DNA from: an uncultured delta proteobacterium
GTDB taxonomy: Bacteria > Desulfobacterota > Syntrophorhabdia > Syntrophorhabdales > WCHB1-27
NCBI GenBank assembly: GCA_963810935.1
Contig: CAWEPK010000003.1
Span: forward strand, 32,001 to 96,000
Length of the DNA stretch: 64,000 nucleotides
Direction of reading: 5' to 3'
The notes beneath the pieces are model-generated. The model was not told the DNA's origin, did no database searches, and saw only the letters and a program-made list of their open reading frames with translations. Of the stretch, positions 1 through 23,465 are shown piece after piece. Numbering within the stretch: position 1 is the first letter of the stretch; each line of letters opens with the position of its first letter. The position numbers were made by a program, and so were the translations under genes.

Positions 1-289
1 TTCCGGAAAATTCCATGACGATGCCGCCGTCCGCGGTCGGGGATATGAATGAATCGTGTTTCTCCGCCGTTATGCCGGTCAGGGGATGGAACCAGTGCGT
101 GTAGTGTGTGGCCCCTTTCTCAATGGCCCAGTCCTTCATGGCGTTCGCAACTATGTCCGCGACATGCGGCTGCAAGGGCAGATCTTTTTCGATCGTTTGC
201 CTCAGGGCCTTGTAAATTTCCTTGGGGAGTCTTTCCTTCATGACCTTATCGTTGAAAACGTTGGAGCCGAAAACTTCCGTAAGCTTCAT
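1..289 (-). CDS. glnN: Glutamine synthetase type III, N-terminal part (runs off window edge)
   Basis: Manual translation from ATG at 289 (not in the ORF track): [26 protein letters not shown]...[32 protein letters not shown], the GSIII N-terminal signature; AAGGAGGA RBS upstream. Confidence 0.93.
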
Positions 290-471: not shown

Positions 472-813
472 CTACCCTATGGCGCTGCCGTCGCGCTCGC
501 CGGTCCGTATCCGGATGCACTCCTCCAGGGGCAGCACGAATATCTTGCCGTCCCCGATTTCTCCGGTACGGCCTCCCTTGATGATCGCCTCGGTCGTCCG
601 CTCCACGAAATCATCGTTGACTGCTATAAGAAGCTGGACCTTTCTGAGCAGGTTTCCCATCTCCTTGACGCCCCTGTAGACTTCGGTCACGCCCATCTGG
701 CGTCCGTGGCCCAGCACCTCGCTTACCGTTATCAGGTTTACTTCCGCCTTGTACAGTTCTTCCTTTACCGCCTCCAGCCTGTCCGGTTTAATAATGGCGA
801 TAATTACTTTCAT
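472..813 (-). CDS. glnK: P-II nitrogen regulatory protein (GlnK/GlnB family)
   Basis: MKVIIAIIKP...GHGRQ...YRG...TGEIGDGKIFV...IRIRTGE; directly downstream of amtB. Confidence 0.95.
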   Translation of the reverse strand: MKVIIAIIKPDRLEAVKEELYKAEVNLITVSEVLGHGRQMGVTEVYRGVKEMGNLLRKVQLLIAVNDDFVERTTEAIIKGGRTGEIGDGKIFVLPLEECIRIRTGERDGSAIG

Positions 814-893: not shown

Positions 894-2120
894 TTATTCG
901 AGTATCGTATATGCGTTCTCGTTGTGCTGCGTGAGGTCGAGGCCCATGATCTCTTCCTTTTCGGGGACCCTCATACCTATCACCCAATCGACCACCTTGT
1001 AAAGAATAATACTTGCGACGAAGCTGTACGCGAGGGTCACCCCGACGGCCGCTGCCTGGATCAGGAGCTGCTTGGGGTTGCCCAGGAAAAGGCCGTTCGC
1101 ACCATCCGGGTTGACGAGCTTCGAGGCGAAAAGCCCGGTGGCCAGCGCGCCGAAGACGCCGCCGACGCAATGGACGCCGAAGGTGTCGAGCGAGTCGTCA
1201 TATCCGAGCAGCGGCTTCACGATTGCGACGGCCAGGAAGCAGAAGAGGCTGACGAATATGCCTATAATGATGGCCGGGATGACGCTTACATAGCCGGACG
1301 CCGGCGTGATCGCCACGAGTCCTGCGACTGCACCCGTTGCCGTACCGAAGGCCGTCGGCTTGCCGTTGTGGATCCATTCTATAAACGCCCATGAAAGGCC
1401 GGCCGTCGCAGCGGCTGTATTAGTCACCACAAACGCGTTTACCGCCAGGCCGTTCGCAGCCAGGGCGCTGCCCGCGTTAAACCCGAACCAGCCGAACCAG
1501 AGCAGCGCGGTGCCAAGGATAACGTGCGGCAGGTTGTGGGGCGGAATGGGCTTCTTATCGTAGCCTTTCCTTTTGCCTATCAGGAGGCAGGTGGCCAGCG
1601 CCGCGATGCCGGAATTGATATGGACGACGGTGCCCCCCGCGAAATCGAGCGCCCCCAGGTCCTTAAGCCATCCGCCTATGCCCCATACCCAGTGTGCGAC
1701 GGGGTCGTAGACAAAGGTGGCCCAAAGGACAATGAATACGCAGAACCCGGAGAACTTCATGCGCTCCGCGAATGCTCCCACGATCAGGGCAGGCGTTATG
1801 ATGGCGAACATGGCCTGGAAGATCATGAACGCCTGGTGGGGGATCGTCGGCGCGTAATCCTTAAACACTTCCAGGCCGACGCCGTTCAGGCCCGCCCACT
1901 GGAGGCCGCCCCAGAACCCCTTGCCGGGCCCGAACGCAAGGCTATACCCGTAGAGTACCCACTGGAGGCTGATAATCGCGAGGATCGTAAAGCACTGCAT
2001 CAGCACGCTGAGGACGTTCTTGCGCCGAACCATACCCCCATAAAAGAAAGCCAGGCCGGGGGTCATGAGCATTACCAGTGCCGAGCACGCCAGCACCCAT
2101 CCAGTATCACCCGTGTTCAT
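894..2120 (-). CDS. amtB: Ammonium transporter (paralogue 1)
   Basis: LMTPGLAFFYGG, DFAGGTVVH, WFGWFGFN and DDSLDTFGVH motifs; twin His present; start at MNTGDT after GGAGG RBS. Confidence 0.97.
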   Translation of the reverse strand: MNTGDTGWVLACSALVMLMTPGLAFFYGGMVRRKNVLSVLMQCFTILAIISLQWVLYGYSLAFGPGKGFWGGLQWAGLNGVGLEVFKDYAPTIPHQAFMIFQAMFAIITPALIVGAFAERMKFSGFCVFIVLWATFVYDPVAHWVWGIGGWLKDLGALDFAGGTVVHINSGIAALATCLLIGKRKGYDKKPIPPHNLPHVILGTALLWFGWFGFNAGSALAANGLAVNAFVVTNTAAATAGLSWAFIEWIHNGKPTAFGTATGAVAGLVAITPASGYVSVIPAIIIGIFVSLFCFLAVAIVKPLLGYDDSLDTFGVHCVGGVFGALATGLFASKLVNPDGANGLFLGNPKQLLIQAAAVGVTLAYSFVASIILYKVVDWVIGMRVPEKEEIMGLDLTQHNENAYTILE

Positions 2121-2324: not shown

Positions 2325-2445
2325 AAAATAAAAAGGCGCCTCCTGTCCTTCAAGTACGTGGACAAGGGACGCCTTCGTCCGGTCGCCAGGGCAAAAAAAT
2401 GGCGCTCTTTTCTAAGAACGCCGCCGTTTTAACACTTCAACGTGT
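2325..2445 (-). promoter_or_regulatory. Putative ANTAR-responsive leader of amtB1-glnK with two tandem intrinsic terminators
   Basis: Hexaloop hairpins ACAC-GTTGAA-GTGT (2432-2445), AAC-GGCGGC-GTT (2417-2428) and GGAC-GAAGGC-GTCC (2367-2380); the last two overlap the 5' arms of terminators at 2393-2422 and 2325-2373. Confidence 0.65.
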
Positions 2446-3843: not shown

Positions 3844-5647
3844 CTAAAGGTCGAGCTCAGCGAGCTTCTCCTTGCCCGGCACCCCTGTCGCGCTCCATCC
3901 GCGCAGGCTGTAGTACTCGGGCAGCATCTTCACAAGCTCGCTCACGTGCCCCTTCGCTCCGCCTTCGGCCAGAGGCACTTTCAACAGGCGCTCGGGCAGC
4001 GTATCGTCTTTCGCCGTAAACCCGGCCTTGATATTATAAAGGCGCTCGAGGTTCCAGATGCGCTCGCCCGCCTTCATAAATTCGTCGGTCGTGTACGGGA
4101 CGCCGGTAGCAGCGCTCAATAGCTCCGCGATCTCGTCCGCGCCGATGCCGAAGGTGGCAAAGAGGCACATGCCCGTCGAATCGAGGGCCGCTGTCAGGTT
4201 CTGGAAGATAATGACCCACTGTGCCTTTCCAACGGTCGCCGTCATATCGATTTTCACAGGGTTGCCGAGCACCTCCACCGCCGTCGTGTAGCCCCGGACG
4301 TGGCAGCCGCCCCGGTTGCCCGTTGCATAATTGAGCCCTATGCCCTGCAGGGCCCGCGGGTCGTAAGCGGGCATCTCCTGCTTCTTCACGGTCATCGAAT
4401 ACTCCGGATGCTCGTAGCTCGCTGCGAGCCGGTAGCTCCCCATCCCAAGCTTTTTGCCGAACCCGACGCCGACGCCTGTCAGGCGGACCATCTCGACCAT
4501 GGCCTCCGCGTTGCCGAAATTCAACGGTATGCCCCCCGTCTCATCGAGACCGATAATACCGTCTTCGAACATCTCCATCGCGCAGGCGACGGTCGAGCCC
4601 ATGGAGATCGTGTCGATGCCGTATTCGTTGCAGAGGTAATTCGCCTTCGTCACCGCATCGAGGTCGTCGACGCCGCACGCGGGCCCGAAGGCCCAGGCGC
4701 TCTCGTACTCCGGCCCCTCTCCGTGGCCCGCGTATTTGGGGTTGGTGACCCGCGTCGCGCGGCCGCAGCTTATGATGCAGGAAAAACACCCTCTGGGGCG
4801 CGTAAGGATCTGTTTGGAAAGCGATTCGCCGCCGACCCTGTCAGCACCGGCAAACATGGGCTGCCGGAAGTTACGGGTGGGCAGGCCGCCGCTTTCGTTG
4901 AGGATATTGACCAGCACGTCCGTTCCGAAGGCCCGCAACCCCCCGCCGCCCACGGGGTGGCTCTTTATCTTCGTCCAGGCATTCGTCATCGCCTTCCGGA
5001 AGGCGTCCGCGTCGGCTACCCGGACCGCGCCTGTGCCCCGGACTGCCACCGCCTTGAGGTTCTTGGCGCCCATGACGGCCCCGACGCCGGTCCGCCCGGC
5101 CGCCCGGCCGTACTCGTTCATGATATTCGCCATGAGGACACCACGCTCTCCGGCAGGCCCGATGCAGGCGACGCTCGCCTCCGGGTCCGTCTCGAGCCGC
5201 ACCGTGTCCGTAGTCTTGTCGGCCGTTTTCCCCCAGAGATGGGCCGCGTCGCGGACCGCAACCGCGTCGTCGTCGATCCAGATATAGACCGGTGTTCTTC
5301 GCCTGCCCTTCAACGACCAGAAGGTCGTAGCCCGCGTACTTCAGCATGGGGCCGAAGACGCCGCCCGAGCTGGAGGCCGCGATCGTGCCCGTAAGGGGGC
5401 CTTTCGTCACGACATCGAAGTGGCCCGCGGACGGGGCGTTCGTGCCCGAAAGCGGCCCAGGCGCGAAGATCAGCTTGTTCTTCGGGCCCAGCGGATCGAT
5501 GGAGGGGTCCGTCTCAGCGAACATCAGATAGGTCCCGAGCCCGCGGGCGCCGATATATTTTTTCGCCGTTGAAAGATCGAGCGGCTCTTTGACGATCGAC
5601 CCGCTCGATAAGTCGATTCGGAGGATCTGGCCGGTCCAGCCGTTCAT
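3844..5647 (-). CDS. aor: Aldehyde:ferredoxin oxidoreductase family W/Mo enzyme (AorB); +1 frameshift near 5295
   Basis: Two overlapping ORFs (MNGWTGQILRIDLS...; GRTGVGAVMGAKNLKAV, CFSCIISCGR, GPEYE, GIDTIS, RGGCH) join into a 600-aa AOR if one base is removed. Confidence 0.9.
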
Positions 5648-6499: not shown

Positions 6500-9400
6500 A
6501 TGTTGGGCAGATTTCGTTCATGGTCCATAAGCACACATTTAATAACTTTGATAGCTTTCCTGGCAGTCCCCTCCATTAGCCTCATTATCTACTCGGGAAT
6601 AGCCGCGCGCAGGACGGCGATAGACGATGCCGGCGGGGAATGCCTGACACTAGCGGGCAATATTGCGGGTCAGCAGCAGTCCATGGTTGCAGGCGCGGAA
6701 CAACTAGGGGCCGCGCTCTCTGCTCTTCCCCAGGTGCAATCTCGAAACCCCGTCGCCGTCAATGCCCTTTTCTCCGAGCTTTTAAGAAAGAATCCTCAAT
6801 ATGCCAATATCGCCATCTGCGACAAATCGGGCCTGGTCTGGGCATCGGCGCTCCCCGAGGGGGAAAGGGTATCGGTGGCCGACCGGAGGTTCGTTCGGGA
6901 AGCGTTCCGCACGGGGATGTTTTCTTCCGGTGAATACATCGTAGGCCGAATATTGAAAAAACCTGCCATCAGTTTTGGATATCCCGTGAAGGACGTGGCT
7001 AATGAGGTGACAGCAGTAATAGGAATTGTCCTCAACCTGGAATACGCCCAGGGGATGTTCGATAAGCTCGACCTCCCTTCCGGAGCGTCGTACGCCCTTC
7101 TCGACCACCAGGGGGTCATTCTCACCAGAAATATAAATGATCCCCTTACAAAGGGCCTTGTCGGACAGCGTGACACTGTGAAAGAGCTGTTCACAGGCAT
7201 GAAGGCTCCGCCCGAAGAGACAACTTTTCAGGCCATGGGGAACGAGGGGAAGTTCAAGCTGGGCGCCTACAGGAGGATTCGCCTGCCGCATGAGGCGGAG
7301 CCCTATATGTATGTCCGTGCCAGCATACCTCTTTCCTCCGCCGTCGCCGCTGCAAACGCGGCCATGTTCCGCAACCTGGCAACCTTCGTGTCCTTGTTCC
7401 TCACCGGGTTGTTTCTGGCCTGGTTCATCGGGAAGCGCGTCATAGTGAACCCCTTGATGATGTTAAAGGGGGCAGCCGGGCAGTTGGCCGCCGGTGCGGA
7501 TACGGTCAATGTGGCTTCCGTTGTGACAGGCGGCGAACTCGGAGAGTGGCTCGCGCATTCGACGATATGGCTGAGACTTTGATTCAGGAAAAGACCGCCC
7601 TTCGGACAAGCGAGGAGCGTTGGTCCACCACCCTCGCCAGCATAGGGGATGCAGTCATTGCAGCCGATGTTGAAGGAAAGATCACATTCATGAACGCCGT
7701 TGCTGAAGGGCTGACCGGCTGGACTCTCAAAGAAGCCGGAGCGAAACCAGTGACGGAGATATTCAACATCATCAACGAGCAGACCCGTGATCAGGTTGAG
7801 AACCCTGTCATAAAGGTGCTCCGGGAAGGCGTGATCGTCGGTCTTGCGAACCATACGGTCCTCATTAGGAAAGACGGATCGGAGGTCCCCATAGACGACA
7901 GCGGCGCTCCCATAAGAGATGAGGTCGGTAACACCAGCGGGGTGGTACTCATTTTCCGCGATATCACCGAGCGTAAACTGGCCGAAGAGGAGCTTCGTCA
8001 AAGCGAAAAGCGGTATCGGGAACTCTTCGAGACGATGTACGAAGGTTTCATCCTCGGGGAAGTTATAACAGACGAGCAGGGCAGAGCGGTGGATCACCGA
8101 TATCTCGATATCAATCCTCGTGCGGAGCAGCAATTCTTTAAGCGTCCTAGAGAGGAGATTGTTGGCAGTACATATAGAACGGTTGGAGGGGCACGGGCGG
8201 CTGATGAGTGGGCAGAACTGCTCGGTAATGTCGCAATAACTGGCGAGCCTGTATCTGTAGAGCGTTATGCGCCCGTAGGCGATCAGTGGATACACTTGGC
8301 TGCATACTCCCCCCGGATCGGGCAGTTTGCCGCAGTCTTCGAGAATATCACCGAGCGCAAGCAGGCCGAAGAGGCGGTTCAAACAACTCTAAAGCGCCTC
8401 TACACCGTTCTTGCGAGCATGTATGGCGGTCTCTTACTTGTAACGGACGAGAGCCGAGTTGAGTTCGCCAATCAGGCGATTTGCGACTATTTCGATTTGA
8501 GCGAGTCACCCGCAGACCTTGTGGGGCTTACCTCATCCGAAATCTTTGCAAAAATCACTGAAGCCTATTTGCACCCTGATGAAGCGACTGCCCGCGTCAA
8601 GGAAATAGTGGATCGAGGACAACCCGTAGCAAACGAAGAAGTGGCCATGCACAACGGGCGCGAACTCCTACGGGATTTTATCCCCATACGTGTAAACGGA
8701 AAATCGTCTGGCCGGTTGTGGTACCACACAGACATCACCGAACGCAAGGCTATGGAGGAGGCATTACAAAAGGCCCACGACGATCTTGAACAACGAGTGA
8801 TCGAGAGAACTGAGCAGCTCGTTAATAGCGAAAAGGAGTTTCGCTTACTTGCCGAGGCCATGCCCCAAATTGTCTGGATTACCAGAGCGGACGGCTGGAA
8901 CATCTATTTCAACCAGCAGTGGGTGGACTACACGGGACTAACGCTTGAAGAAAGCTACGGTCATGGCTGGAACACACCGTTCCATCCCGATGACAGGCAA
9001 CGCGCCTGGGACGCCTGGCAGAATGCGGTAACGAACAACGGCACTTATTCTCTTGAATGCCGTTTGCGGGCAGCGGATGGGACATATCGCTGGTGGCTGG
9101 CCCGTGGCGTGCCTATTGTGAACGAGGAAGGAGAGACTACGAAGTGGTTTGGTACCTGCACCGATATTGAGGAGCTTAAGAGAGTTGAGGCTCAGCTCCG
9201 CCAGGCGCAGAAAATGGAGGCCCTTGGCACGCTCGCGGGAGGCATCGCCCACGACTTCAACAATATCCTCGCCGCCATCATCGGGTTCACTGAGCTTGTG
9301 GAGGACCACGTCCCTAAAGCGAGCCGGGAGGCACATCACCTGAAGAGGGTCCTGGAGTCTTCCTTGCGAGGCAGGAACCTGGTGCGGCAGATGCTCACCT

Positions 9401-10332
9401 TCAGCAGAAAGGGAGAGCAAGAGAAGAAACCCATGAGTTTGAGCAGCCTCGTCAAGGAGACTGTCAAGCTCATTCGGGCGACCACGCCGACGACGATCAG
9501 CATCAAGGTCAGCACCGGAAGCGAATCGGGTATAATCCTCGCAGACCCTACACAGATGCAGCAGGTCGTCATGAACCTCTGCACCAATGCTGCGCACGCC
9601 ATGCGGGAGAAGGGCGGGACCCTCGACATAAGATTGAACAATTACAACGTCTCTCCATCGGATGGATACCCCCACGGGATCAACCCCGGCCTTTATACGA
9701 GGTTGACCGTCAGTGATACCGGCACCGGCATGTCCTCCGACATCCTCGATAAGATATTCGACCCCTTCTTTACCACGAAGAAATTGGGAGAGGGCACGGG
9801 TCTCGGCCTTTCCGTTGTCCACGGTATCGTGAAGCAATCCAACGGGCATATTACCGTATACAGTGAGCCGGGCAGAGGGTCCGCATTCACCCTGTATTTC
9901 CCTCAGATCACAGACACGGGAGAGCAGGAAGCCTATGCAGCTACTGACGACGAGATTCCCACCGGCTCCGAGCGCATCCTCTTCGTCGATGACGAAGAAG
10001 CTATCGTGGAAATGGGCGAAGACATCCTCGCGGAGCTTGGCTACGACGTGACGTCCCGGGTGAGCAGCAGGGAGGCCCTTGCGCCCTTCAAGCTCGACCC
10101 ATCCCAATTCGATCTTGTCATTACCGACCAGACCATGCCCGAAATGACGGGCGTTGAACTTGCGAAAGAGATCCTCGCTCTCAGGGTGGACATGCCTATC
10201 ATCATGTGCACGGGTTTCAGCTATGTAGTCAATGAGGACAAGGCCAAGGCGGCAGGCATCAAAGCCTTTGCCATGAAGCCCCTAACGAAAAGGGAGATCG
10301 CCCAGACGATCAGAAAAGTACTCGACCAGTAA
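6500..10332 (+). CDS. Hybrid sensor kinase (Cache-HAMP-multiple PAS-HisKA-HATPase-REC); -1 frameshift near 7546
   Basis: ORF 6500-7582 (TM-Cache-TM-HAMP) joins ORF 7546-10332 (AGGIAHDFNN, DPFFTTK, GTGLGL, REC) at GE[L]ARAFDDMA. Confidence 0.88.
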
Positions 10333-10635
10333 GCCCGGTTGCACCTTCCGACTGGTAATCGGTCGTATTCTTCAAATCTCGATTCCGATCAGTTGTAGGT
10401 GAAGGCAACAATCTATGTATGCACTTCCTTAATGTAAATTTCAAAACACATTGAATACTTTTGCGCAATTTGAAGTAAAGAATGACGAGCGCCTCGTTGG
10501 AAGTAAAACGCGTCGGATTCCGTCAGTCTTTAGCCCTCGGTGCACATCCACGTCTAATCGATTTCTTGAGGCGCTCATCCGCCCGTTATTGCCGCAGAGA
10601 TGTCTTTGGAGGACGAGGAACGCGCCGGGCAAGAA

Positions 10636-10761
10636 GCGGCTGCGTATAAAGATGCAGATTTGGTGAAGCGCAAGCCCGAGGAACGGAGGCGTACTCTTTG
10701 TGTACGTCGGAGTCCCGCAGGGCGCGGCGCTACGCCAAAGATGCGCTTTATACGCAGCCGC
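10636..10761. repeat. Long inverted-repeat (MITE/REP-like) element downstream of amtB2
   Basis: Perfect 16-bp terminal IR GCGGCTGCGTATAAAG / CTTTATACGCAGCCGC with further internal pairing. Confidence 0.6.
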
Positions 10762-10767
10762 CCACCC

Positions 10768-11997
10768 CTACTCCATTACGGTATAGGCCGACTCGCGGTG
10801 CTGGCTCAGGTCCAGCCCCACAATCTCTTCCTTCAAGGGCACGCGGACGTCGGTGAAGAGATCGACTGCCTTATAGATGATGTAGGTGGCGACCAGGCTG
10901 TAAGCCGCGACTGCGCCAGTTGCCAGGAGCTGGACAAGGAACTGCCGGCTGTTGCCGAAGAACAGGCCGTCAGCCCCTGCCGCGTTGATCGCCTTCGAGG
11001 CAAATAGGCCCGTAACCAGCATGCCGATGATGCCGCCTATGCCGTGCACGCCGAATGCGTCGAGGGAGTCGTCGTAGCCGAGCTTCGGCTTAATCAGGCT
11101 GACGCAGATAAAGCATATTATGCTCGCGATGAGCCCTATGATTATCGCGGGGAAGGTGCCCACGAAGCCGGAGGCCGCCGTGATCGTGGCAAGGCCCGCG
11201 ATCGAGCCGGTTATCGTGCCGAACATGGTGGGCTTGCCCGTGAAGAGCCATTCGAGAACGGCCCACGTCAGCCCTGCGGTCGCAGCGCCTATGTGCGTGA
11301 CTACCAGGGCATGGACCGCAAGGCCGTTCGCGGCCAGCGCGCTGCCTGCGTTGAACCCGAACCAACCGAACCAGAGCAGCGCTCCGCCCAGCACGGTGAA
11401 GGGCAGGTTGTGCGGGGGAACGGGCCTGTTCTTATATCCGGTGCGCCGGCCGATGACCAGGGCCGTAACGAGGGCGGCGATGCCCGCATTGATGTGGACG
11501 ACGCTGCCTCCCGCGAAATCAATCACGCCCATCTCTTTCAGCCATCCCCCCACGCCCCATACCCAGTGGCAAACGGGGTCGTAAACGAAAGTCGCCCAGA
11601 GGACGGTGAAGATAAGAAAAGCGGAGAACTTCATGCGCTCGGCGAACGCGCCGATGATGAGGGCAGGCGTGATGATCGCAAACATGGCCTGGAAGATCAT
11701 GAAAGCCTCATGCGGAATAGTCGGCGCGTAGTCGGCGTAAGGGGCTGCGCCGACGCCCGCGAGACCGGCCCACGCAAGGCTGCCTATGAACTTATTGCCC
11801 GGTGCGAACGAAAGGCTGTAACCGAAGAAGACCCACTGGAGCGTAAGAATACAAAGGACTACGAAGCACTGCATGAGGACGCCGAGTATGTTCTTGCGCC
11901 GCACCATCCCGCCATAAAAAAAGGCAAGCCCTGGCGTCATGAGCATCACGAGCCCGGTAGAGATCAACACCCACGCGGTATCACCTGCGCTTATCAT
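10768..11997 (-). CDS. amtB: Ammonium transporter (paralogue 2)
   Basis: Same Amt motifs (DFAGGSVVH, WFGWFGFN, DDSLDAFGVH). Confidence 0.97.
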   Translation of the reverse strand: MISAGDTAWVLISTGLVMLMTPGLAFFYGGMVRRKNILGVLMQCFVVLCILTLQWVFFGYSLSFAPGNKFIGSLAWAGLAGVGAAPYADYAPTIPHEAFMIFQAMFAIITPALIIGAFAERMKFSAFLIFTVLWATFVYDPVCHWVWGVGGWLKEMGVIDFAGGSVVHINAGIAALVTALVIGRRTGYKNRPVPPHNLPFTVLGGALLWFGWFGFNAGSALAANGLAVHALVVTHIGAATAGLTWAVLEWLFTGKPTMFGTITGSIAGLATITAASGFVGTFPAIIIGLIASIICFICVSLIKPKLGYDDSLDAFGVHGIGGIIGMLVTGLFASKAINAAGADGLFFGNSRQFLVQLLATGAVAAYSLVATYIIYKAVDLFTDVRVPLKEEIVGLDLSQHRESAYTVME

Positions 11998-12082
11998 TCC
12001 TCTCCTCCCTGGAGTTATCTATGCGGCGACCGCGCCTGCTTGCTTGCGCGGCAACGCCCTTTCGAAAGGCCTTCAGGTGCGC

Positions 12083-12138
12083 AAAAAAGGCTTTCCCTTA
12101 CCGGTAACCTCAATGTTTCCTCGACACGCCAATGTGTC
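12083..12138 (-). promoter_or_regulatory. ANTAR-type dual hexaloop RNA motif in amtB2 leader
   Basis: GACAC-ATTGGC-GTGTC (12123-12138), 5-nt linker, AAC-ATTGAG-GTT (12106-12117); both loops have A1 and G4; followed by a weak hairpin and T6. Confidence 0.72.
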
Positions 12139-12168
12139 AGATTGCGCTTTGGAAGGACTTCCGCCTTT

Positions 12169-12198
12169 TACAAGTCGAAAAGGTGCGTTGATGGTAAC
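12169..12198 (-). promoter_or_regulatory. Putative alternative-sigma promoter GTTACCA-N16-ACTTGTA upstream of amtB2
   Basis: Third exact copy of the motif, just downstream of the sigma-factor stop codon. Confidence 0.75.
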
Positions 12199-12217
12199 TC
12201 GGGGGGGTGCGGCTCGT

Positions 12218-12859
12218 TTAGTTCCGGCAGCCTGCGGTGAGGCGCCTGCTGCCTTTGCGGCCGGCTGCGCGCCCGTTGAGCCTCTCGTATTTTGCCCTTA
12301 TCTTATTGCGGATCTTCACGACGCTGACATGGGAGATGCCCAGTTTCTGCCCTATTTCCCTCGTGGTCAGGCCTTCGAGGCAGAAAAAAAGGACGTCCCG
12401 TTCCCTCTGGCTCGTGCCGGACCCCGTCATCGCCTCAACCTCCAGTATGGTCTCCACCTGGTCGCACGACGGGCGGCCCTCCGCAATGAGCATCTCTTCG
12501 AGGTGCGGCCCGTCCTCTTCCATTATGCGGTTGAGGCTCAAAAGCGTGGTGGGGTCATGCGCTTTCCTTATGTAGTTCTTGAGGTGGAAATAGCAGCCCT
12601 GGAGTATATAACTGTCCGTCTTGTCTTCCAGGTTGCCCGCCAGGAAATCGCACCACAGGTGGATCAGGGCCTCCTGAAGAAGGTCCTGGTCGTCCATGAA
12701 GGAGAAATGGCCGTTCAGCTTGCGGGCAATCCTGCGGAGCGTGGGCGAGAGCTTATCGACGAGGGACTCAAAGGAGAAGTAGCCGGTCCTCGTGCGGACC
12801 TTCTGCGTTCCGGCCGTGTTGTCTACGCTTACAAGATGTCTGCTCGCCATTTCTTCCAT
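12218..12859 (-). CDS. Alternative sigma-70 family RNA polymerase sigma factor (regions 2 and 4; ECF/SigH-like)
   Basis: Region 2-like DDQDLLQEALIHLW...LKNYIRK; region 4 HTH GLTTREIGQKLGISHVSV; no adjacent anti-sigma. Confidence 0.85.
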   Translation of the reverse strand: MEEMASRHLVSVDNTAGTQKVRTRTGYFSFESLVDKLSPTLRRIARKLNGHFSFMDDQDLLQEALIHLWCDFLAGNLEDKTDSYILQGCYFHLKNYIRKAHDPTTLLSLNRIMEEDGPHLEEMLIAEGRPSCDQVETILEVEAMTGSGTSQRERDVLFFCLEGLTTREIGQKLGISHVSVVKIRNKIRAKYERLNGRAAGRKGSRRLTAGCRN

Positions 12860-12876
12860 CCTATGCCCCTCAAACG

Positions 12877-12971
12877 AAAAAAGGCGTCCGAACCCTTTTT
12901 AAGGTTCAGGACGCCTGAGTCCTCTGATTGTCTTTTGCCTACGCAGGCAACGGGAAAGACTTCAATGTCTT
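12877..12971 (-). promoter_or_regulatory. ANTAR-type antitermination leader of the sigma-factor gene
   Basis: P1 AAGAC-ATTGAA-GTCTT (12956-12971); P2 GGAC-TCAGGC-GTCC (12909-12922) overlaps the strong terminator GGCGTCCTGAACCTT-AAAA-AGGGTTCGGACGCC-T6 (12877-12915). Confidence 0.75.
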
Positions 12972-12980
12972 CTTTTCAGT

Positions 12981-13009
12981 AGTATCCTACAAAAACGTAT
13001 CCCTGTCAA
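12981..13009 (-). promoter_or_regulatory. Sigma70-type promoter of the sigma-factor gene
   Basis: TTGACA-N17-GATACT immediately upstream of leader P1. Confidence 0.7.
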
Positions 13010-13080
13010 GCTTGATCGGACGGTAAAACGCGTTTTTTTCTTAGGGGTTGTAAGAGGAGGGCGGTTCGCCGGCTGCTTTT

Positions 13081-14304
13081 CTAACGTCTTATGTCCGCTG
13101 CCACGATGATCGCGTCAGCCACTTCCCTCATGCTCTTTCTTAAGTCCATGCTCTTTTTGTGGATCTTCTTGTACGCCTCGTCCTCTCCGATGCCCATCTC
13201 CTTCATCAGCACGCCCTTGGCCCTCTCTACGACCTTCCTCGTCTCCAGGGCCTCTTTCGCCGACAGTATCTCCTGGTCGAGGCGCGTGTTCTCGATCGCC
13301 ACGGCCGCCTGGTTGGCGATGGCCTGCATGATGTCGATCTCCTCCCTGGAGAAGTTGTGCTGCTTCTGCATGTAGCTGTTTATGACGCCGATGACCCTGT
13401 CCTTAATCATCATCGGCACCGCTATCATGGAGACGACGCCCTCTTTCTTTGCGACGTGCGGGTACATATAGCCCGGCTCTTTCGTAACGTCGGCAACAGT
13501 GATGGGCCGTTTTTCGAGCACCACCCTGCCTGCACTCGATTGGCCCACCTTCAGGTTCGGCTTGTTGATGTATTCCTGGCTGAGGCTCTGCGTTGCCGCA
13601 ATGACAAGCTCCTGCTTCTTTTCGTCGAGGAGCATGATCGAGCAGATCTTCGTGCCCATCACCTGGGCGGTCATGGTCACGATAAGCTGGAGTATCTCTT
13701 TCAGGTAGTAATCGGAGACGATGGTGCGGCTTACCTCCGACAGGAGGTCGAGCTGCTTGGCTTTCCTGTTGATCTCTTCGTAGACGACCGCGTTCTCGAT
13801 GGCGCTCCCCAGGTACTTCGAGATCGTGAAGAGCAGGTTTACCTGGTCCTCGGGATACTCGTACTCTTTTTTGTGGTGCAGGTTCATAACGCCCGTGATC
13901 TTGTCCTTCGCAAGGATGGGGACCGCCAGAAACGCCTCGTACTTGTCTTCGGCCAGCGCGGTGAAGCTCTTGAACCTCGGGTCCTTGTACGCCTGGCGCG
14001 CGAGCGCGACGGGCTTCTTTTCCTTTGCGGCCCAGCCGGTCACGCCTTCGCCCAGCTTAAGCTTGATCGCACCCACGACCTTGCTGTGGCCCGTGCCCGC
14101 GGCGCGGAGCGTCAGTTCGTCGTTCTGCTCGCTATAAAGATAGATAAGGCACGAGTCTGCGCCGGTCAGGCCGACCACCATATCGACGATATGGGCGAGA
14201 AGCTCGTTCAGCTCCAGGTTGCTGCTGATATGCTGGGCCACCTGGTGTAAGATGGCCATCTCCTGTTCTTTCGCGCTCTGTTTCCGCCCTGCTTTGGTCG
14301 CCAT
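13081..14304 (-). CDS. GAF-GAF-ANTAR RNA-binding antiterminator
   Basis: Two GAF repeats (LGEGVTGWAA...DPRF...FLAVPI; SMIAVPM...IGVIN) and a C-terminal ANTAR (LETRKVVERAKGVLM...EDEAYKKIHKKSMDLRKSMREVADAII). Confidence 0.92.
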   Translation of the reverse strand: MATKAGRKQSAKEQEMAILHQVAQHISSNLELNELLAHIVDMVVGLTGADSCLIYLYSEQNDELTLRAAGTGHSKVVGAIKLKLGEGVTGWAAKEKKPVALARQAYKDPRFKSFTALAEDKYEAFLAVPILAKDKITGVMNLHHKKEYEYPEDQVNLLFTISKYLGSAIENAVVYEEINRKAKQLDLLSEVSRTIVSDYYLKEILQLIVTMTAQVMGTKICSIMLLDEKKQELVIAATQSLSQEYINKPNLKVGQSSAGRVVLEKRPITVADVTKEPGYMYPHVAKKEGVVSMIAVPMMIKDRVIGVINSYMQKQHNFSREEIDIMQAIANQAAVAIENTRLDQEILSAKEALETRKVVERAKGVLMKEMGIGEDEAYKKIHKKSMDLRKSMREVADAIIVAADIRR

Positions 14305-14342
14305 TGGTGCTCCGTACGAGAATAAGCCCGGAATAAGAGTCT

Positions 14343-14371
14343 ATCTTATTGTATCGCACCCCCTTTGTCAA
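14343..14371 (-). promoter_or_regulatory. Sigma70-type promoter of the ANTAR gene
   Basis: TTGACA-N17-TAAGAT. Confidence 0.55.
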
Positions 14372-14434
14372 CCTTGCCCTGCCTTGCGTTTCAGCCGCTC
14401 CCGGCTCGCGAATAAAATCTATTTCCCATAGAGA

Positions 14435-15505
14435 TTGTTATGTGATAGAAAGATGTGCGAGGTAAATCCGGAAATGGTTGGCAGACAGAACGAGATGGAC
14501 CGGCTGCTCCAGGCCCTGCGCGACCCCGACTGGGAGAAGCGCTTCAAGGCCGCCGAGGGGCTCGGCAAGCTGAAGAGGGCTAGGGCAGTGCGGCCGCTTA
14601 TCGAGGCGCTCAAGGACGAAGAGGAATACGTCCGGGAGGGGGCCGCCTGGGCCCTGGGCGAGATAGGCCACAAGATGGCGGTCGAGCACCTGACGGAAAC
14701 GCTCGCAGACAAGGACAGGTACGTGCGGGAGGGGGCCGTGACCGCCCTCGGTAAGATAAAAGACCCGGGTGTCGTCGCTCCGCTCGCGGGCTCGTTGAAA
14801 AACCCGGAAGAATCGATGAGGCGGGCCGCCGAAGAGGCCCTGGGAGGGCTCGGGCCCGCCGCACTCGGAGAGATTGCCGGTCTGCTGACGGATGCGGACT
14901 GGGATATCAGGTGGAGGGTCACGCACATAATGGGGCGCATCAAGGACGGCTCGGTCGTCCCCGCCCTGTGCGCAAGCCTGAAGGACGAGAACAAATACGT
15001 GCGGGAAGGGGCGGCGGCGGCGCTCGGCGAGATAGGGGACAAAAAGGCCGTGCCGGCGCTGGTCGAGGCCCTGGGCGACCAGAATAAATACGTGCGCGAA
15101 GAGGTCGTGAACGCCCTGGGCGAGCTGGGCGACAAAAGGGCGGTTGATGCCCTCATGGGCGCCCTCGACGATGCGGACTGGGGCGTCCGGTGGGGCGCAA
15201 CGAACGCCCTTGGCGAGATAAGGGACAAAAAGGCGATTGATGCACTCATCCTCCGCCTGAAAGACGAAGCGCGATACGTCCGCGAGGGCGCGGCGCTCGC
15301 CCTCTCCAGGATAGGCAGGGCGGCGGTCCCGACGCTCATCGAATCCCTCAGGGACAAAGACCGCAACATAAGGCGCTGGGCCGCCTGGACCCTGGGTAAG
15401 ATCAAGGACGAGAGGGCCGCCAGGCACCTCATAGGGGCGCTCAACGACGAGGACGGGGGAGTGCAGTTCGCCGCAGAAGTCGCCCTCGCCGAGATGGAAG
15501 AGTAA
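14435..15505 (+). CDS. HEAT (PBS-lyase-like) repeat protein; start uncertain
   Basis: About 11 tandem 31-aa repeats of the form YVREGAAxALGEIGDKxAVxxLxxALxD. Confidence 0.85.
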   Translation: MLCDRKMCEVNPEMVGRQNEMDRLLQALRDPDWEKRFKAAEGLGKLKRARAVRPLIEALKDEEEYVREGAAWALGEIGHKMAVEHLTETLADKDRYVREGAVTALGKIKDPGVVAPLAGSLKNPEESMRRAAEEALGGLGPAALGEIAGLLTDADWDIRWRVTHIMGRIKDGSVVPALCASLKDENKYVREGAAAALGEIGDKKAVPALVEALGDQNKYVREEVVNALGELGDKRAVDALMGALDDADWGVRWGATNALGEIRDKKAIDALILRLKDEARYVREGAALALSRIGRAAVPTLIESLRDKDRNIRRWAAWTLGKIKDERAARHLIGALNDEDGGVQFAAEVALAEMEE

Positions 15506-15548
15506 CCGTAGCGCAATCTACGAAAAAGGAATATCTTAAGGTAAGACC

Positions 15549-16448
15549 ATGACGTGCTACATGTGCGTAAAGGTGCCCGTAGCGAACCTGCGAAAGACGC
15601 CCAAAGAGGCCATGCCGCTCCTCGTCCGCGATGAAATGCAGGAGAGCCAGCTTCTTTTCAACGAGGTCGTCGCAGTCCGGGAGGAGCGCGGCGATTGGCT
15701 GGCGGTCGATGCGCTCGAGCAGCAGAAGCTCGTCGACGGCACATGGCAGGGCTACCCCGGCTGGATGCGAAAAAAGGACCTTGCGCCTGCGGACGGGCCT
15801 GCACCCTATAACGGTGTAGTAAAGGCGCCCTTCACGACGGCGCGCATTTTACCCGCCGCAAAAGCAGCGGCCGTTTTCCCTCTGGGCCTCGGCACGAGAC
15901 TCTCTTTCACGGACGAGGCGAAGGGGTTTCTGGGGTTTGCGATGGAAGGCGGGAAGCCTGCGTGGGTGGCAAAGGATGCGATTGCGTCGATGCCGCCCAA
16001 AGGCGGCGTAAAGCCCGCGGAAGTAGTCAGGCTCGCACGCCTTTTCCTGGGCGCCGTCTACCTGTGGGGCGGCCGCTCGATGCCGATGCCCTGGGCGGTC
16101 GGCCCCGTCATGGGCATCGATTGCTCGGCCCTCGCGAACCTCGCCTTTCGCGCTGCAGGAATCGATTTACCGAGGGATGCCCACGATCAATGCAAGGCGG
16201 CATCGTCGATAGAGGCAGCATCGTTGAAGGCGGCGGACCTGGTCTTTCTCGCCTCGGCAGGCGTTGACGATACGGTGCGCCACGTGATGGTCCACCTGGG
16301 CGGCGAGCGCCTGATCGAAGCCGCCCAGACGGGCGACATGGTGCGGATAAGCACGTTTCGTGAAAGGCTCGGCGTCTCACTGAAGGAGATCGCGAAAGGG
16401 CATGGCACAGGCCCGGAGAGAAAAATATACTTCGGAAGGATTCTATAA
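15549..16448 (+). CDS. NlpC/P60 cysteine peptidase (YkfC-like, SH3b-like N-terminus)
   Basis: YLWGG...GIDCSAL...LPRDA...DLVF...HV. Confidence 0.85.
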   Translation: MTCYMCVKVPVANLRKTPKEAMPLLVRDEMQESQLLFNEVVAVREERGDWLAVDALEQQKLVDGTWQGYPGWMRKKDLAPADGPAPYNGVVKAPFTTARILPAAKAAAVFPLGLGTRLSFTDEAKGFLGFAMEGGKPAWVAKDAIASMPPKGGVKPAEVVRLARLFLGAVYLWGGRSMPMPWAVGPVMGIDCSALANLAFRAAGIDLPRDAHDQCKAASSIEAASLKAADLVFLASAGVDDTVRHVMVHLGGERLIEAAQTGDMVRISTFRERLGVSLKEIAKGHGTGPERKIYFGRIL

Positions 16449-16797: not shown

Positions 16798-17697
16798 TCA
16801 GGCCAACCGGATACGGAACTTCTCGACCATGCGGTCCGGGTTATAGGATAGCTTCGCCTCCCTCAAACCCGGCTCCCCCAGGTCCTGCTCGCGGTTGACG
16901 AAAGGTACGCCCGACCATTCACGCTCGCAGAACTGCTGGTTTATCGCGGCGTAAAGACCGCGTATCTCGACATTCGCTTTCTCTATATGGACGACGGCGG
17001 TCTGCGCATTGAGGCGCTCACCCAGGGTGAACGCCTCGACTTTGCCTTCGATGAGGATCGCCCCGCCTTTTATCTGCAATGCGCGGAAATTCAGGAGGGC
17101 TTCCCGCGTCGCGTCGCCCTCGCCGATCAGGTTCAGGTCCTCTTCGCACCGCCGCAGCTCGCACCACGTGACCGCCATTTCCAGGCAGGCATCGATATGG
17201 CCTTCCTCTATAGGCTCATAAACAAACCTGTAGGAGCGCATGAGGTAATTGAGGTGGTTCCGCTTGGACCGGTACGCCTTGCCTTCCAGCCTGATGAGGT
17301 CGTCGGTCCGGTAGACGTAATCGAAGTGGTCGCGCACGGGCTCGGATGCGAAGCCCCCGTCGGAGGCAAGCTCGGCCGCGAGCCGCGCGTCCGCCCTGTC
17401 TATGCGCGGCGCCTCGACGTGCCTCTCGTCTGCCAGCCACGAAAGGAGCATCCGGGTAACTTCCGCCCGTGACGGCGGCCCGATAGGGGGTAGGGCACAG
17501 ACGCCGTTTCCTGAAGGTGAGCCGATTACCAGCAGCCAATCGCCGAATACGGACCAGGAAAACCCGTAATGCGACCTCCATATGAACATGTTGGTGAAAT
17601 TCAGCTCGGACGTTTCCGGCCCGTAGGCCTCAAGCCTGCCCCTGATGAAGTCCCTGTCTTCGATGCCGACAGGCTTGAATTCCGGAAACTCAGGCAT
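16798..17697 (-). CDS. DUF2156 / phosphatidylglycerol lysyltransferase-domain (GNAT-like) protein
   Basis: SELNFTN, DYVYRTDDL, KRNHLN, HIEKAN, NREQDLGEPGLREAKLSY. Confidence 0.8.
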   Translation of the reverse strand: MPEFPEFKPVGIEDRDFIRGRLEAYGPETSELNFTNMFIWRSHYGFSWSVFGDWLLVIGSPSGNGVCALPPIGPPSRAEVTRMLLSWLADERHVEAPRIDRADARLAAELASDGGFASEPVRDHFDYVYRTDDLIRLEGKAYRSKRNHLNYLMRSYRFVYEPIEEGHIDACLEMAVTWCELRRCEEDLNLIGEGDATREALLNFRALQIKGGAILIEGKVEAFTLGERLNAQTAVVHIEKANVEIRGLYAAINQQFCEREWSGVPFVNREQDLGEPGLREAKLSYNPDRMVEKFRIRLA

Positions 17698-19763
17698 CAG
17701 GACGGTTCCTTTTCGGGAACTTGCGCGAGCGTGGCCTTCCAAGCTTCTGCGCAGGCGTCGCTCGGGGCGCGCCAGTCGGCTCGCGGAGAGAGGGAGCCGC
17801 CCGACCCTACCTTCGGTCCGTTGGCTATGCAGCTTCGCTTGTACTGGCTCGTCTCGAAGAAGCGGTCGACGAAAACGGAGAGCCAGCGCTTGATCTCGCC
17901 TATGGTGTAAGAGACGCGTTTTGCTTCAGGCACGTCGGGCCACGCGCCCTTGCTCTTGTCGTGCCACGCGGTCCATGAGAGGAAGGCCGCCTTCGGCGGC
18001 GCGTAACCGAAACGGAGTATGTAGTAGAGCGTGAAATCCTGCAGGCTGTACGGCCCGACTACGTCCTCCGAGCGCTGCCCCGGCTCTTCGCTGTTTTCCG
18101 CAGGGATAAGCTCCGGGCTGATCTCCGTGTCGAGGACATCCATAAGGGCCCTGCTCGCCTCAGGCCCGAAGAACTCTTTGTCGGCAACCCAGCGGATAAG
18201 GTACTGGACGAGCGTCTTGGGCACGCTCGAATTTACGTGGTAGTGCGCCATGTGGTCACCCACGCCGTATGTAGACCATCCGAGGGCAAGCTCCGACAAA
18301 TCGCTCGTCCCTACCACGAGGCCGCCCCGCAGGTTGGCAAGCCTGAACAGGTGGCTCGTCCGCTCTCCCGCCTGTACGTTCTCGAAGGTAATGTCATAGA
18401 CAGGCTCAGCCTTAGCAAAGGGGTGACCGATGTCTTTGAACATCTGGAGGCACGACGGCTTTATATCGATCTCTTCGAAGGAGCAGCCCAGCGCGGCAAT
18501 CAGCCTGCGCGCCTGGTCCATCGTGCGGGCGCTCGTCGCAAAACCGGGCAGCAGGCAGGCGATGACGTTCGTCCTCGGCAACCCCCTGACGTCCATGGCC
18601 CGGACTGCCACGATGAGCGCCTGCGTAGAGTCGAGGCCGCCTGATACGCCGATCACGACCTTCTTTATGCGCGCGAAATCGAGCCGCTTTGCCAGCCCCT
18701 GCACCTGTATCTCGTAGACCTCTGCGCACCTGTGGTCCTGACCCTCGACGTCCGACGGCACGAAGGGGAACCGCTCGTAGGCGCGGTCGAGTAAAAGGGC
18801 CTTGTCCCGGGGGACTGCCGCGTCGACGGGGAGCGTGCGGAAGGCCGCGACATCGCCGGCGTGGCGCAGGACCGATTGGCCGAAGCTGTTCTGCCGCATC
18901 CGGTCCTGGCTGAGCCTCTCCAGGTCTACATCGCCGGTCACAAGCTGCGCTTCGTAGGAGAAGCGCTTCGATTCGGCGAGTTTCGTCCCGTTCTCGTAGA
19001 TCATGGCCTGGCCGTCCCAGGCGAGGTCTGTCGTCGATTCGCCGAACCCGGCCGACGTGTATACGTAGGCGGCGATGCAGCCGGCCGACTGGTTGGCGAC
19101 GAGCTGCCGCCTGTACCCTGCCTTACCGACAGTTACATTCGACCCCGACAGGTTGACGAGGACGGTCGCGCCTGCGAGGGCCGCGTAAGACGAAGGCGGG
19201 ATGGGCACCCACAGGTCTTCGCAGATCTCGACGAAGAAGCGCAGGTCCGGCTGGGCGGGCGTCTGAAAAATGAGTTTCGTCCCGAAGGGAACGTCGTGTC
19301 CGAAAAGCGCGATCCGGTCACAGGCCGCGTAGTCCGCCGGCGCGAAGTAGCGCATCTCGTAGTACTCGCGATAATTTGGCAGGTACGTCTTCGGCACGAC
19401 GCCGATGATATTCCCGCCGTAGATGGTTGCCGCGCAGTTGAAAAGAAGGCTGTTCAGGCGGAGCGGCAGGCCGACTACCGTAACAATGGGGACCCCTGCG
19501 GAGGCCTCGGCGACTTTCGAAAGGGCGTCGAGGCAGCCTGCAAGCAGCGCCTCCTGGTGGAAGAGGTCATCGCACGAATAGCCGGCAAGGCCCAGCTCCG
19601 GGAAGGCAACGACGAGCGCGTTTCGCTTCGCCGCCTCTTTCATCAAGGCGATTGTCTGCTCCGCGTTGAAAGCGGGGTTTGCTACGCGGACCGCAGGTAT
19701 CGCAGCGGCTATGCGGACGAAATTATGGTTATAAAGGTTGAAAAACTCACCTTCCTGCACCAT
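17697..19763 (-). CDS. nadE: Glutamine-dependent NAD+ synthetase
   Basis: CN-hydrolase domain (FPEL, PKTYLPNYREY, EICEDLW) plus SGGLDST synthetase motif. Confidence 0.95.
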   Translation of the reverse strand: MVQEGEFFNLYNHNFVRIAAAIPAVRVANPAFNAEQTIALMKEAAKRNALVVAFPELGLAGYSCDDLFHQEALLAGCLDALSKVAEASAGVPIVTVVGLPLRLNSLLFNCAATIYGGNIIGVVPKTYLPNYREYYEMRYFAPADYAACDRIALFGHDVPFGTKLIFQTPAQPDLRFFVEICEDLWVPIPPSSYAALAGATVLVNLSGSNVTVGKAGYRRQLVANQSAGCIAAYVYTSAGFGESTTDLAWDGQAMIYENGTKLAESKRFSYEAQLVTGDVDLERLSQDRMRQNSFGQSVLRHAGDVAAFRTLPVDAAVPRDKALLLDRAYERFPFVPSDVEGQDHRCAEVYEIQVQGLAKRLDFARIKKVVIGVSGGLDSTQALIVAVRAMDVRGLPRTNVIACLLPGFATSARTMDQARRLIAALGCSFEEIDIKPSCLQMFKDIGHPFAKAEPVYDITFENVQAGERTSHLFRLANLRGGLVVGTSDLSELALGWSTYGVGDHMAHYHVNSSVPKTLVQYLIRWVADKEFFGPEASRALMDVLDTEISPELIPAENSEEPGQRSEDVVGPYSLQDFTLYYILRFGYAPPKAAFLSWTAWHDKSKGAWPDVPEAKRVSYTIGEIKRWLSVFVDRFFETSQYKRSCIANGPKVGSGGSLSPRADWRAPSDACAEAWKATLAQVPEKEPS

Positions 19764-19810: not shown

Positions 19811-23465
<3,655 letters not shown>

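Follow-up and report, generated by a model that had tools for sequence, protein, structure and literature searches.

A predicted ANTAR-controlled attenuator before an ECF-like sigma-factor gene, and its candidate nitrogen-assimilation regulon, in an uncultured delta proteobacterium

The window (the whole stretch of DNA analysed here, 64,000 nucleotides from an uncultured delta proteobacterium) carries on its minus strand a gene for an ECF-like sigma factor and a gene for a predicted antiterminator of the ANTAR type, with a leader placed between the two. In what follows, A1 and G4 denote A in the first and G in the fourth place within a hairpin loop. The elements concerned are:

12218..12859, minus strand: gene for an ECF-like sigma70-family factor of 213 aa, with two helical domains and no named family
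12916-12877, minus strand: intrinsic terminator, 15-bp stem at 12916-12882, T6 then CGTTT
12922-12909, minus strand: hairpin P2, GGAC-TCAGGC-GTCC, loop 12918-12913, with U1 and G4 (12915)
12950-12935, minus strand: middle hairpin, TTGCCT-GCGT-AGGCAA, within the 33-nt P1-P2 linker
12950-12930, minus strand: middle hairpin together with AAGAC 12934-12930, TTGCC-TGCGTA-GGCAA; G4 is 12942 if the loop is a hexaloop
12972-12955, minus strand: hairpin P1, GAAGAC-ATTGAA-GTCTTT, loop 12966-12961, with A1 and G4 (12963)
13009-12981, minus strand: sigma70-type promoter of the sigma gene, TTGACA 13009-13004, 17 nt, GATACT 12986-12981; kept in homologous leaders
13081..14304, minus strand: gene for a GAF-GAF-ANTAR protein of 407 aa, PF03861 at 73 bits, a predicted antiterminator
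14343..14371, minus strand: sigma70-type promoter of the ANTAR gene, TTGACA-17-TAAGAT

All parts of the leader described by the initial annotation, namely promoter, P1, linker hairpin, P2 and terminator, were recovered at these coordinates on the minus strand. The 3' half of P2 is the 5' arm of the terminator, whose T-run ends at 12877, leaving 17 nt to the ATG (12859), and the mutual exclusion of P2 and terminator that the annotation had claimed was borne out: the terminated fold has an energy of -37.0 kcal/mol against -27.7 kcal/mol with P2 forced, a bias of 9 kcal/mol to termination, and the overlap is kept in 63 of the 69 related leaders considered below. Since the terminated fold is favoured over the P2 fold, the default state of the leader is predicted to be off. 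Translational control was considered and rejected, because the ribosome site comes after the U-run.

The terminator by itself folds at -26.6 kcal/mol (z -5.4; none of 200 shuffles equals it). The hairpins folded singly are weak, with z of -2.4 for P1, -1.6 for the linker hairpin and -1.1 for P2, and the bare hairpin pattern matches six times in the window against 2.4 expected; the reality of the small hairpins therefore rests on their conservation. A loose genome-wide scan for a hexaloop combined with a terminator was not discriminating, giving 35 matches for G4 against 12, 26 and 18 for A, C and T at that position. The strict form of the scan gave two matches, of which only the sigma leader has an upstream A1/G4 hairpin, and is insensitive, because it missed the amtB2 leader listed below. 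Searching positions 10000-16000 with Rfam returned no relevant family up to E 5, the two matches obtained being unrelated chance ones.

The sigma protein scores 40.5 bits against TIGR02937, whose cut-off is 42.9, and does not match Sigma70_r2. Its predicted structure has two confident helical domains and a low-confidence linker (pTM 0.42), and a fold search returned ECF and other alternative sigmas as best matches, which supports the sigma70-family fold presumed when the downstream gene was first annotated as a sigma-factor gene. At E 0.001 or better, 1098 homologues were counted for it, its own genome has no paralogue, and the nearest clusters in an Atlas search are without a name and mostly from Omnitrophota. 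ECF-type sigmas are usually controlled by an anti-sigma factor, and a cognate gene adjacent to the sigma gene is typical, not universal. Among the neighbour clusters of the 80 loci analysed below (ORFs of at least 80 aa), no conserved anti-sigma candidate was found. The sigma gene lies behind a sigma70 promoter here and in 69 leaders, instead of showing the usual autoregulation from its own promoter. In one related genome (G011 C459, L020/L094) a second sigma copy is preceded by the motif GTTACCA-N16-ACTTGTA, discussed below, and by hexaloop hairpins; judging from this arrangement, the second copy may be under its own control or that of the first.

The ANTAR gene is the only one found in the genome (4.06 Mb, 93% complete), and no hexaloop leader was seen downstream of its own promoter at 14343..14371. 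When EutV residue numbering is mapped onto the protein by alignment, with a two-residue offset, equivalents of R142, K149, E160 and Y164, which hold G4, are kept, as are those of K143, M172 and R175; K147 is replaced by R, and R168, N173 and R177 by H, D and S. The roles of these RNA-contact residues in EutV, where A1 makes no protein contact, are taken from the available text of PMC8934654. Among the best NCBIfam and PDB matches of the GAF part are the GAF domains of PtsP (EI-Ntr) and NifA, a likeness by homology only, and the best solved relatives of GAF1 include the PtsP GAF domain. As this GAF domain is required for glutamine sensing by EI-Ntr (available text of PMC4848567), our guess, by analogy, would be that the GAF domains of the ANTAR protein sense glutamine or 2-oxoglutarate.

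The motif GTTACCA-N16-ACTTGTA has four strict copies in the genome against 0.23 expected, and all of them precede nitrogen genes. Those in the window, with the genes behind them, are:

12198-12169, minus strand: predicted sigma promoter of amtB1, GTTACCA-N16-ACTTGTA
12083..12138, minus strand: amtB1 leader, GACAC-ATTGGC-GTGTC and AAC-ATTGAG-GTT, then a weak degenerate terminator with T6
10768..11997, minus strand: amtB1 ammonium transporter gene
2501-2472, minus strand: predicted sigma promoter of amtB2-glnK, second copy of the motif
2325..2445, minus strand: amtB2 leader, with three G4 hexaloops (loops start at 2441, 2425 and 2376) and two tandem terminators
894..2120, minus strand: amtB2 ammonium transporter gene, named from likeness to amtB1
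472..813, minus strand: glnK-like PII gene, named after visual comparison with a P-II match
428-399, minus strand: predicted sigma promoter of the glutamine synthetase gene, third copy of the motif, without a hexaloop leader
1..289, minus strand: 5' end of a glutamine synthetase gene of about 700 aa, type-III size, which runs off the window

The amtB1 leader region folds with z near 0, and the glutamine synthetase is the only one found in the genome. The fourth strict copy precedes a gene for a NifA-like activator (508.6 bits against a cut-off of 528.85; G000:C7:726-2486, L123), which also has an ANTAR leader. The genome contains rpoN, and neither nifH nor glnD was found in it over cut-off. 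A copy with one mismatch (G000:C3:115286; L125:1286-1366) precedes the gene of a 677-aa protein, which has no NCBIfam match at E 1e-10 and is a possible fifth target. About 2 kb before the window and just past the glutamine synthetase gene, a sigma70 promoter is followed by the hexaloop CAC-AGAGGG-GTG (A1/G4) and a terminator-overlapped GAC/GTC hairpin with a 5-nt loop, ahead of a glutamate synthase/MTHFR-like operon (L124:6000-6120, G000 C3); this is possibly a further ANTAR target outside the sigma regulon. Three genes in the window appear split into overlapping frames, probably by assembly indels: a PAS hybrid kinase gene at 6500-10332, and those at 3844-5647 and 19811-22433, which by their motifs would encode an aldehyde:ferredoxin oxidoreductase-like protein and alanyl-tRNA synthetase.

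In relatives the motif was gathered via the sigma gene or via the motif itself, and the counts that follow describe the motif and are not a census. The 88 distinct instances share two adjacent spacings, with 83 and 3 instances at the two lengths and none at any other from 5 to 39. A G4 hexaloop lies 7-45 nt downstream of the motif in 81 of 88 instances and upstream in 1 of 87, and the AC-N6-GT hairpins behind the motif, unfiltered, have G4 in 189 of 198 cases. These downstream hairpins typically form a close pair with a terminator, often followed by a third loop and a second terminator. Many loci have GGTTACCA-N16-ACTTGTA directly 3' of the sigma gene, then further hexaloop-terminator leaders. 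The genes behind the motif in relatives encode amt, porin-like, glnK, two types of glutamine synthetase, NifA-like and glutamine amidotransferase proteins.

Conservation of the sigma leader was followed in the loci of sigma relatives, which are encoded on 304 genome stretches, the best 80 of 304 being analysed. Their records carry the labels Syntrophorhabdia, deltaproteobacteria and Omnitrophota, and in one case each Elusimicrobia and Firestonebacteria; the Omnitrophota sample includes at least one record labelled 'Planctomycetia' (G228). The 69 leaders compared are those of 68 loci and the window; 11 of the 80 loci gave no pattern match (short contigs or variant promoters), and L020 was excluded because a wrong promoter had been assigned to it. 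P1 is also present upstream in 33 of the 63 leaders that retain P2 and the terminator. Across 88 homologous upstream regions, RGAC-N6-GTCY hairpins have G4 in 103 of 103 cases with the loop unfiltered, kin among them not being independent, and the same pattern with loops of 4, 5, 7 and 8 nt matches 0, 0, 4 and 4 times; the conservation of hairpin loops in orthologues, on which the initial annotation had staked its reading, therefore holds for G4. Its view of U1 in P2 as non-canonical needs correction to the extent that U1 is normal in this family: position 1 of the P2 loop is T in 35, A in 19, G in 6 and C in 3 of the 63 homologues. A1 is found in 30 of 33 P1 homologues against those 19 of 63 for P2, and the freedom of P2 at this position fits G4 being the sole base-specific contact (available text of PMC8934654). 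Covariation across orthologous leaders, which the annotation had suggested as a check, is seen for part of the structure: among 27 leaders that have both hairpins and were picked by hand, 13 of 22 pairs in the stems of terminator and linker have compensatory changes, with a covariation score that none of 500 shuffles reaches and far lower scores in slid controls, whereas the P1 and P2 stems give almost no covariation because they are nearly invariant.

Leader, sigma gene and ANTAR gene tend to stay together: of the 80 loci, 62 have an ANTAR gene within 4 kb of the sigma gene, 61 have nadE and 30 have amt as a neighbour; the glnK neighbour cluster, inflated by chained ORFs, was left out of the counts. 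The window has a gene for a 688-aa glutamine-dependent NAD synthetase at 17697-19763, 3.4 kb upstream of the ANTAR gene, and in the 61 related loci it is a shorter nadE that separates the leader from the sigma gene. In 26 of the 80 loci, the gene immediately upstream of the ANTAR gene encodes a Crp/Fnr-family regulator, for example at L038:180-854.

We propose, and regard as likely, that an ANTAR-controlled attenuator holds the sigma gene off until the GAF-GAF-ANTAR protein binds, and that the sigma factor then transcribes nitrogen-assimilation genes. Housekeeping polymerase would start at TTGACA-17-GATACT, a sequence plainly present whose activity we presume, and would by default stop at about 12877. 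Under nitrogen limitation, the ANTAR dimer would become active, load on P1, probably pass via the middle G4 loop and hold P2, thereby blocking the terminator. The sigma factor, on strong comparative grounds, would then transcribe amtB1, amtB2-glnK, and the genes for glutamine synthetase and the NifA-like activator. Most target transcripts would carry their own hexaloop-terminator leaders, and the same ANTAR protein would gate both the sigma factor and its targets, forming a coherent feed-forward AND gate in which attenuation would replace the anti-sigma factor usual for ECF-type sigmas. The weak amtB1 terminator and the glutamine synthetase promoter without an ANTAR leader count against this proposal, as do the EutV residues that differ, the near absence of covariation in P1 and P2, and the low scores and pTM of the sigma protein.

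A further point against this circuit is the P1-P2 spacing of 33 nt, which is 28-41 nt in 32 of 33 relatives and lies beyond the 5-12 nt range of eut, where a spacing of 14 nt (PMC3369931) and a spacing increased by 20 nt (PMC8934654) abolished antitermination, according to the available text of these papers. The initial annotation had compared the exclusion of P2 and terminator with eut leaders. That exclusion stands, but to treat P1 and P2 as a simple pair of the eut kind is probably wrong, the linker being the remnant of a first terminator whose hairpin tends to have G4 itself. In 10 of the 33 leaders with P1, mostly Omnitrophota-labelled, the 3' arm of P1 begins its own terminator with a U-run, and several of these have an extra A1/G4 hairpin 5' of P1; by their sequence, such leaders are two attenuators in tandem. 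In the window, GTCTT of the P1 3' arm can still pair with AAGAC 12934-12930 at -10.6 kcal/mol, against -12.0 kcal/mol for P1, and the U-run is gone. Because these relatives keep the terminator and the window stem can still form without a U-run, the linker hairpin in the window is, on this comparison, the apex of a former first terminator that is still intact in Omnitrophota.

The middle hairpin itself might take part in recognition. Of 32 distinct middle hairpins, from sequences that are kin, 26 have G4, compared with a G content of 24% at the other loop positions and with G4 in 5 of 22 loops at the apex of the second terminator. Read as TGCGTA, the middle loop of the window has G4, and its hairpin is 5 nt away from P1 and 12 nt away from P2, both spacings within the 5-12 nt eut range (available text of PMC3369931). 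Its U1 and A6 can pair, closing it to a tetraloop, and many middle loops among relatives are of 7 nt. A GC-closed middle hairpin was not found in 21 of the 63 leaders, four of which have another G4 hexaloop near P2. We give about even odds to a three-loop relay over P1, the middle loop and P2, as against long-range or single-loop action.

Let us suppose instead that the attenuator is real and that the ANTAR protein acts on P2 alone, with P1 and the middle hairpin being relics of the lost first attenuator or loading aids. We hold this for a possibility worth keeping in mind, if a somewhat doubtful one. It would accord with EutV contacting one hexaloop at a time (available text of PMC8934654), with the 30 of 63 leaders that have P2 and the terminator without this type of P1 (L035 and L037 having P2 only), and with the sigma-dependent leaders, where in most of 32 cases the second hexaloop is followed, at a loop-to-loop distance of 38-53 nt, by a third that has a terminator of its own, as P1 is by P2 in the window (48 nt loop-to-loop). 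It would leave aside that P1 is nearly invariant in those Syntrophorhabdia leaders that are without its terminator, and that, of 27 middle loops in leaders without P1, 25 have G4, 23 have A1 and 12 are hexaloops, as if a partner loop were needed.

For the second half of the proposed circuit, we consider it likely, from patterns of co-occurrence and co-variation, that the sigma factor reads GTTACCA-N16-ACTTGTA. Among 31 relatives, the motif is present in 21 of 24 sigma-positive and 2 of 7 sigma-negative genomes, the latter two being 84% and 92% complete, and in an Omnitrophota sample of 121 genomes it is present in 14 of 21 sigma-positive and none of 100 sigma-negative genomes, 56 of these 100 having an ANTAR gene. 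Within its own phylum, the sigma gene is found in only 4 of 201 genomes, so that this survey serves as background; the motif is present in 3 of these 4, a single motif copy occurs in 6 of the 197 sigma-negative ones, three copies being identical, and the reversed control matches at least as often. Five distant genomes, picked for having the sigma gene, have two motif copies each. One sigma-positive genome, G027, has neither of the promoter variants described next.

Where the sigma factor changes, the motif changes with it. All eight sigmas of the Omnitrophota sample scoring below about E 1e-45 have an altered region 2 (for example, NEAYIIKACEF for TDSYILQGCYF), and are followed by an intact GTTACCA, the same spacing, and a -10 half ending in ACTTAT, ACTTTA, ACTTAG or ACTTGT plus another base; a search of five genomes showed second copies of the -10-altered motif ahead of glutamine synthetase in four. 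Only two of the 80 loci (family-f2 sigmas) have HMMVWK as their region-4.2 helix, and both have GTTGACA-N16-ACTTGTA. The genome G022 has four sites of the GTTGACA type, of which one is intracoding and the other three stand before amt, before glutamine synthetase and before the gene that follows the sigma gene, and none of the GTTACC type. Since sigma4 reads the -35 and sigma2 the -10 half (available text of PMC7826278), each change falls in the half where it would be expected; a single evolutionary event probably accounts for each co-variation. In a subclade (L013-L017), a 15-nt motif spacer occurs together with HVAVVKV in the region-4.2 helix.

These patterns make it unlikely, in our estimate, that the leader is ANTAR-gated while the motif is the site of another factor, for example one of the Crp/Fnr family, with the sigma regulon being different or absent. 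A Crp-family gene is a frequent upstream neighbour of the ANTAR gene, as noted above, and the sigma protein scores below family cut-offs, which would suit such a factor; but the motif is asymmetric, has a fixed spacer and the position required of a -35/-10 pair, it tracks the sigma gene and not the ANTAR gene, each half changes with the matching sigma domain, and the Crp gene was not seen in motif-bearing Omnitrophota-labelled loci.

It could also be that glutamine-dependent NAD synthetase (nadE) was the original target of the leader and the sigma gene a passenger of the operon, as nadE separates the leader from the sigma gene in 47 of the 69 cases, in a set of 80 loci selected via the sigma gene, where nadE-only leaders could not appear. 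Against this we set the leaders directly on the sigma gene, 21 of 69 with the window included (the remaining one being placed otherwise), which occur in records labelled Syntrophorhabdia as well as Omnitrophota, and we think the passenger role improbable. That the stem-loop terminates constitutively, either to close the ANTAR transcript or to dampen the sigma gene, with incidental small hairpins, might be argued from the individual weakness of these hairpins and the poor separation of G4 in the loose genome scan, yet seems very hard to sustain, given a conserved promoter 65-130 nt upstream pointing into the terminator, the G4 of 103 of 103 homologous hairpins with strict 6-nt loops, and a leader that stays on the sigma operon both with nadE intervening and without an adjacent ANTAR gene (L005, L008, L010).

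Returning to the proposed circuit, its extension to nitrogen fixation appears to be indirect. nifH is found in 9 of the 31 relatives, and nifH as a direct sigma target was rejected, as the motif or a hexaloop was found in 0 of 6 upstream regions; 5 of these 6 match a sigma54 pattern. The order in nitrogen fixers would run from ANTAR protein to sigma factor to NifA to sigma54-dependent genes.

ANTAR attenuation of nitrogen genes is already well known (PMC3369931, PMC12591593; this and the following comparisons draw on the available parts of the papers cited). With EutV/eut of Enterococcus faecalis, NasR/nasF and AmiR/amiE, the present system has in common the G4-reading ANTAR residues, short G4 hexaloops (PMC3369931, PMC8934654), a last hairpin overlapping the terminator 5' arm, and nitrogen-related targets. 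It differs from them in its tandem GAF sensor in place of a receiver or NIT domain, its sigma-factor target, the A1 not kept in P2 and the structured 33-nt spacing, and its relatives have tandem attenuators. Of the features of eut-type dual hexaloops, it has the ANTAR protein, two 6-nt loops with stems of at least three pairs, G4 and the terminator overlap; it does not have A1 in both loops or a short linker (eut linkers span 5-12 nt, and those of PMC8164766 reach 25 nt), the latter being present, with spacings of 5 and 12 nt, on condition that the middle loop is included. Because these two features are absent, we do not file the leader as a canonical member; to judge by its sequence, it would work like a dual-hexaloop attenuator, and it fits the single-hexaloop definition of PMC8934654.

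The Gnf system of Geobacter sulfurreducens (GnfL/GnfM and GnfK/GnfR) also combines promoter activation with ANTAR antitermination on glnK and amtB, and its terminator arms are similar to those of the present leader (GGCGCC/GGCGTC; PMC2995071). There, sigma54 and an enhancer-binding protein stand above the ANTAR regulator; here, the ANTAR protein would be on top, gating a sigma70-family factor that feeds a NifA-like gene, and has no adjacent kinase partner. Instead of a receiver-ANTAR protein with a histidine kinase and sigma54 targets, as in GnfK/GnfR, we find GAF-GAF-ANTAR and GTTACCA-N16-ACTTGTA targets. With ECF (group 4) sigmas, the sigma protein shares a core of about 175 aa, two helical domains and a predicted bipartite non-canonical promoter (PMC7826278); it differs in having no conserved anti-sigma neighbour, in usually not being autoregulated and in scoring below family cut-offs. 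PMC7826278 gives ECF282 as an example of control by transcription, and the text and the part of its supplement available contain no mention of ANTAR or ammonium, which would be compatible with an unremarked group. ANTAR RNAs before transcription-factor genes in Actinobacteria likewise stand upstream of regulators with indirect regulons; they are mostly translational, serve LacI/TetR-type factors and have linkers of 2-25 nt (PMC8164766). The word 'sigma' is absent from the main text of PMC8164766 and from the target tables of PMC3369931, as far as available, and the latter paper called the GAF-ANTAR protein type uncharacterized in 2012. In a literature search that covered few subscription papers, no report of an ANTAR-gated sigma factor or of a GTTACCA-N16-ACTTGTA promoter was found.

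Bacterial nitrogen control is described via a few master regulators: NtrBC with sigma54, GlnR, TnrA, AmtR, NtcA and NrpR. We lean somewhat towards regarding the present system as a separate class of global nitrogen regulator, an attenuation-controlled sigma70-family factor without an anti-sigma factor, switched by a one-component GAF-ANTAR protein, placed above NifA/sigma54 in nitrogen-fixing relatives, and with a three-loop relay leader derived from tandem attenuators; in Syntrophorhabdia, in Omnitrophota and in further uncultured anaerobes, it would fill the role of NtrBC, GlnR, TnrA or NtcA. As its parts are small and lie side by side, a laboratory strain could be given the whole circuit. 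It would provide a test case for the GAF-ANTAR protein and for the use of one, two or three hexaloops by an ANTAR dimer, the natural -35 and -10 swaps amount to a ready-made map of the specificity between sigma and promoter, and an orthogonal switch could be made from the sigma/promoter pair. If our reading is true, the uncultured anaerobes that abound in digesters, sediments and groundwater would have another master regulator of nitrogen.
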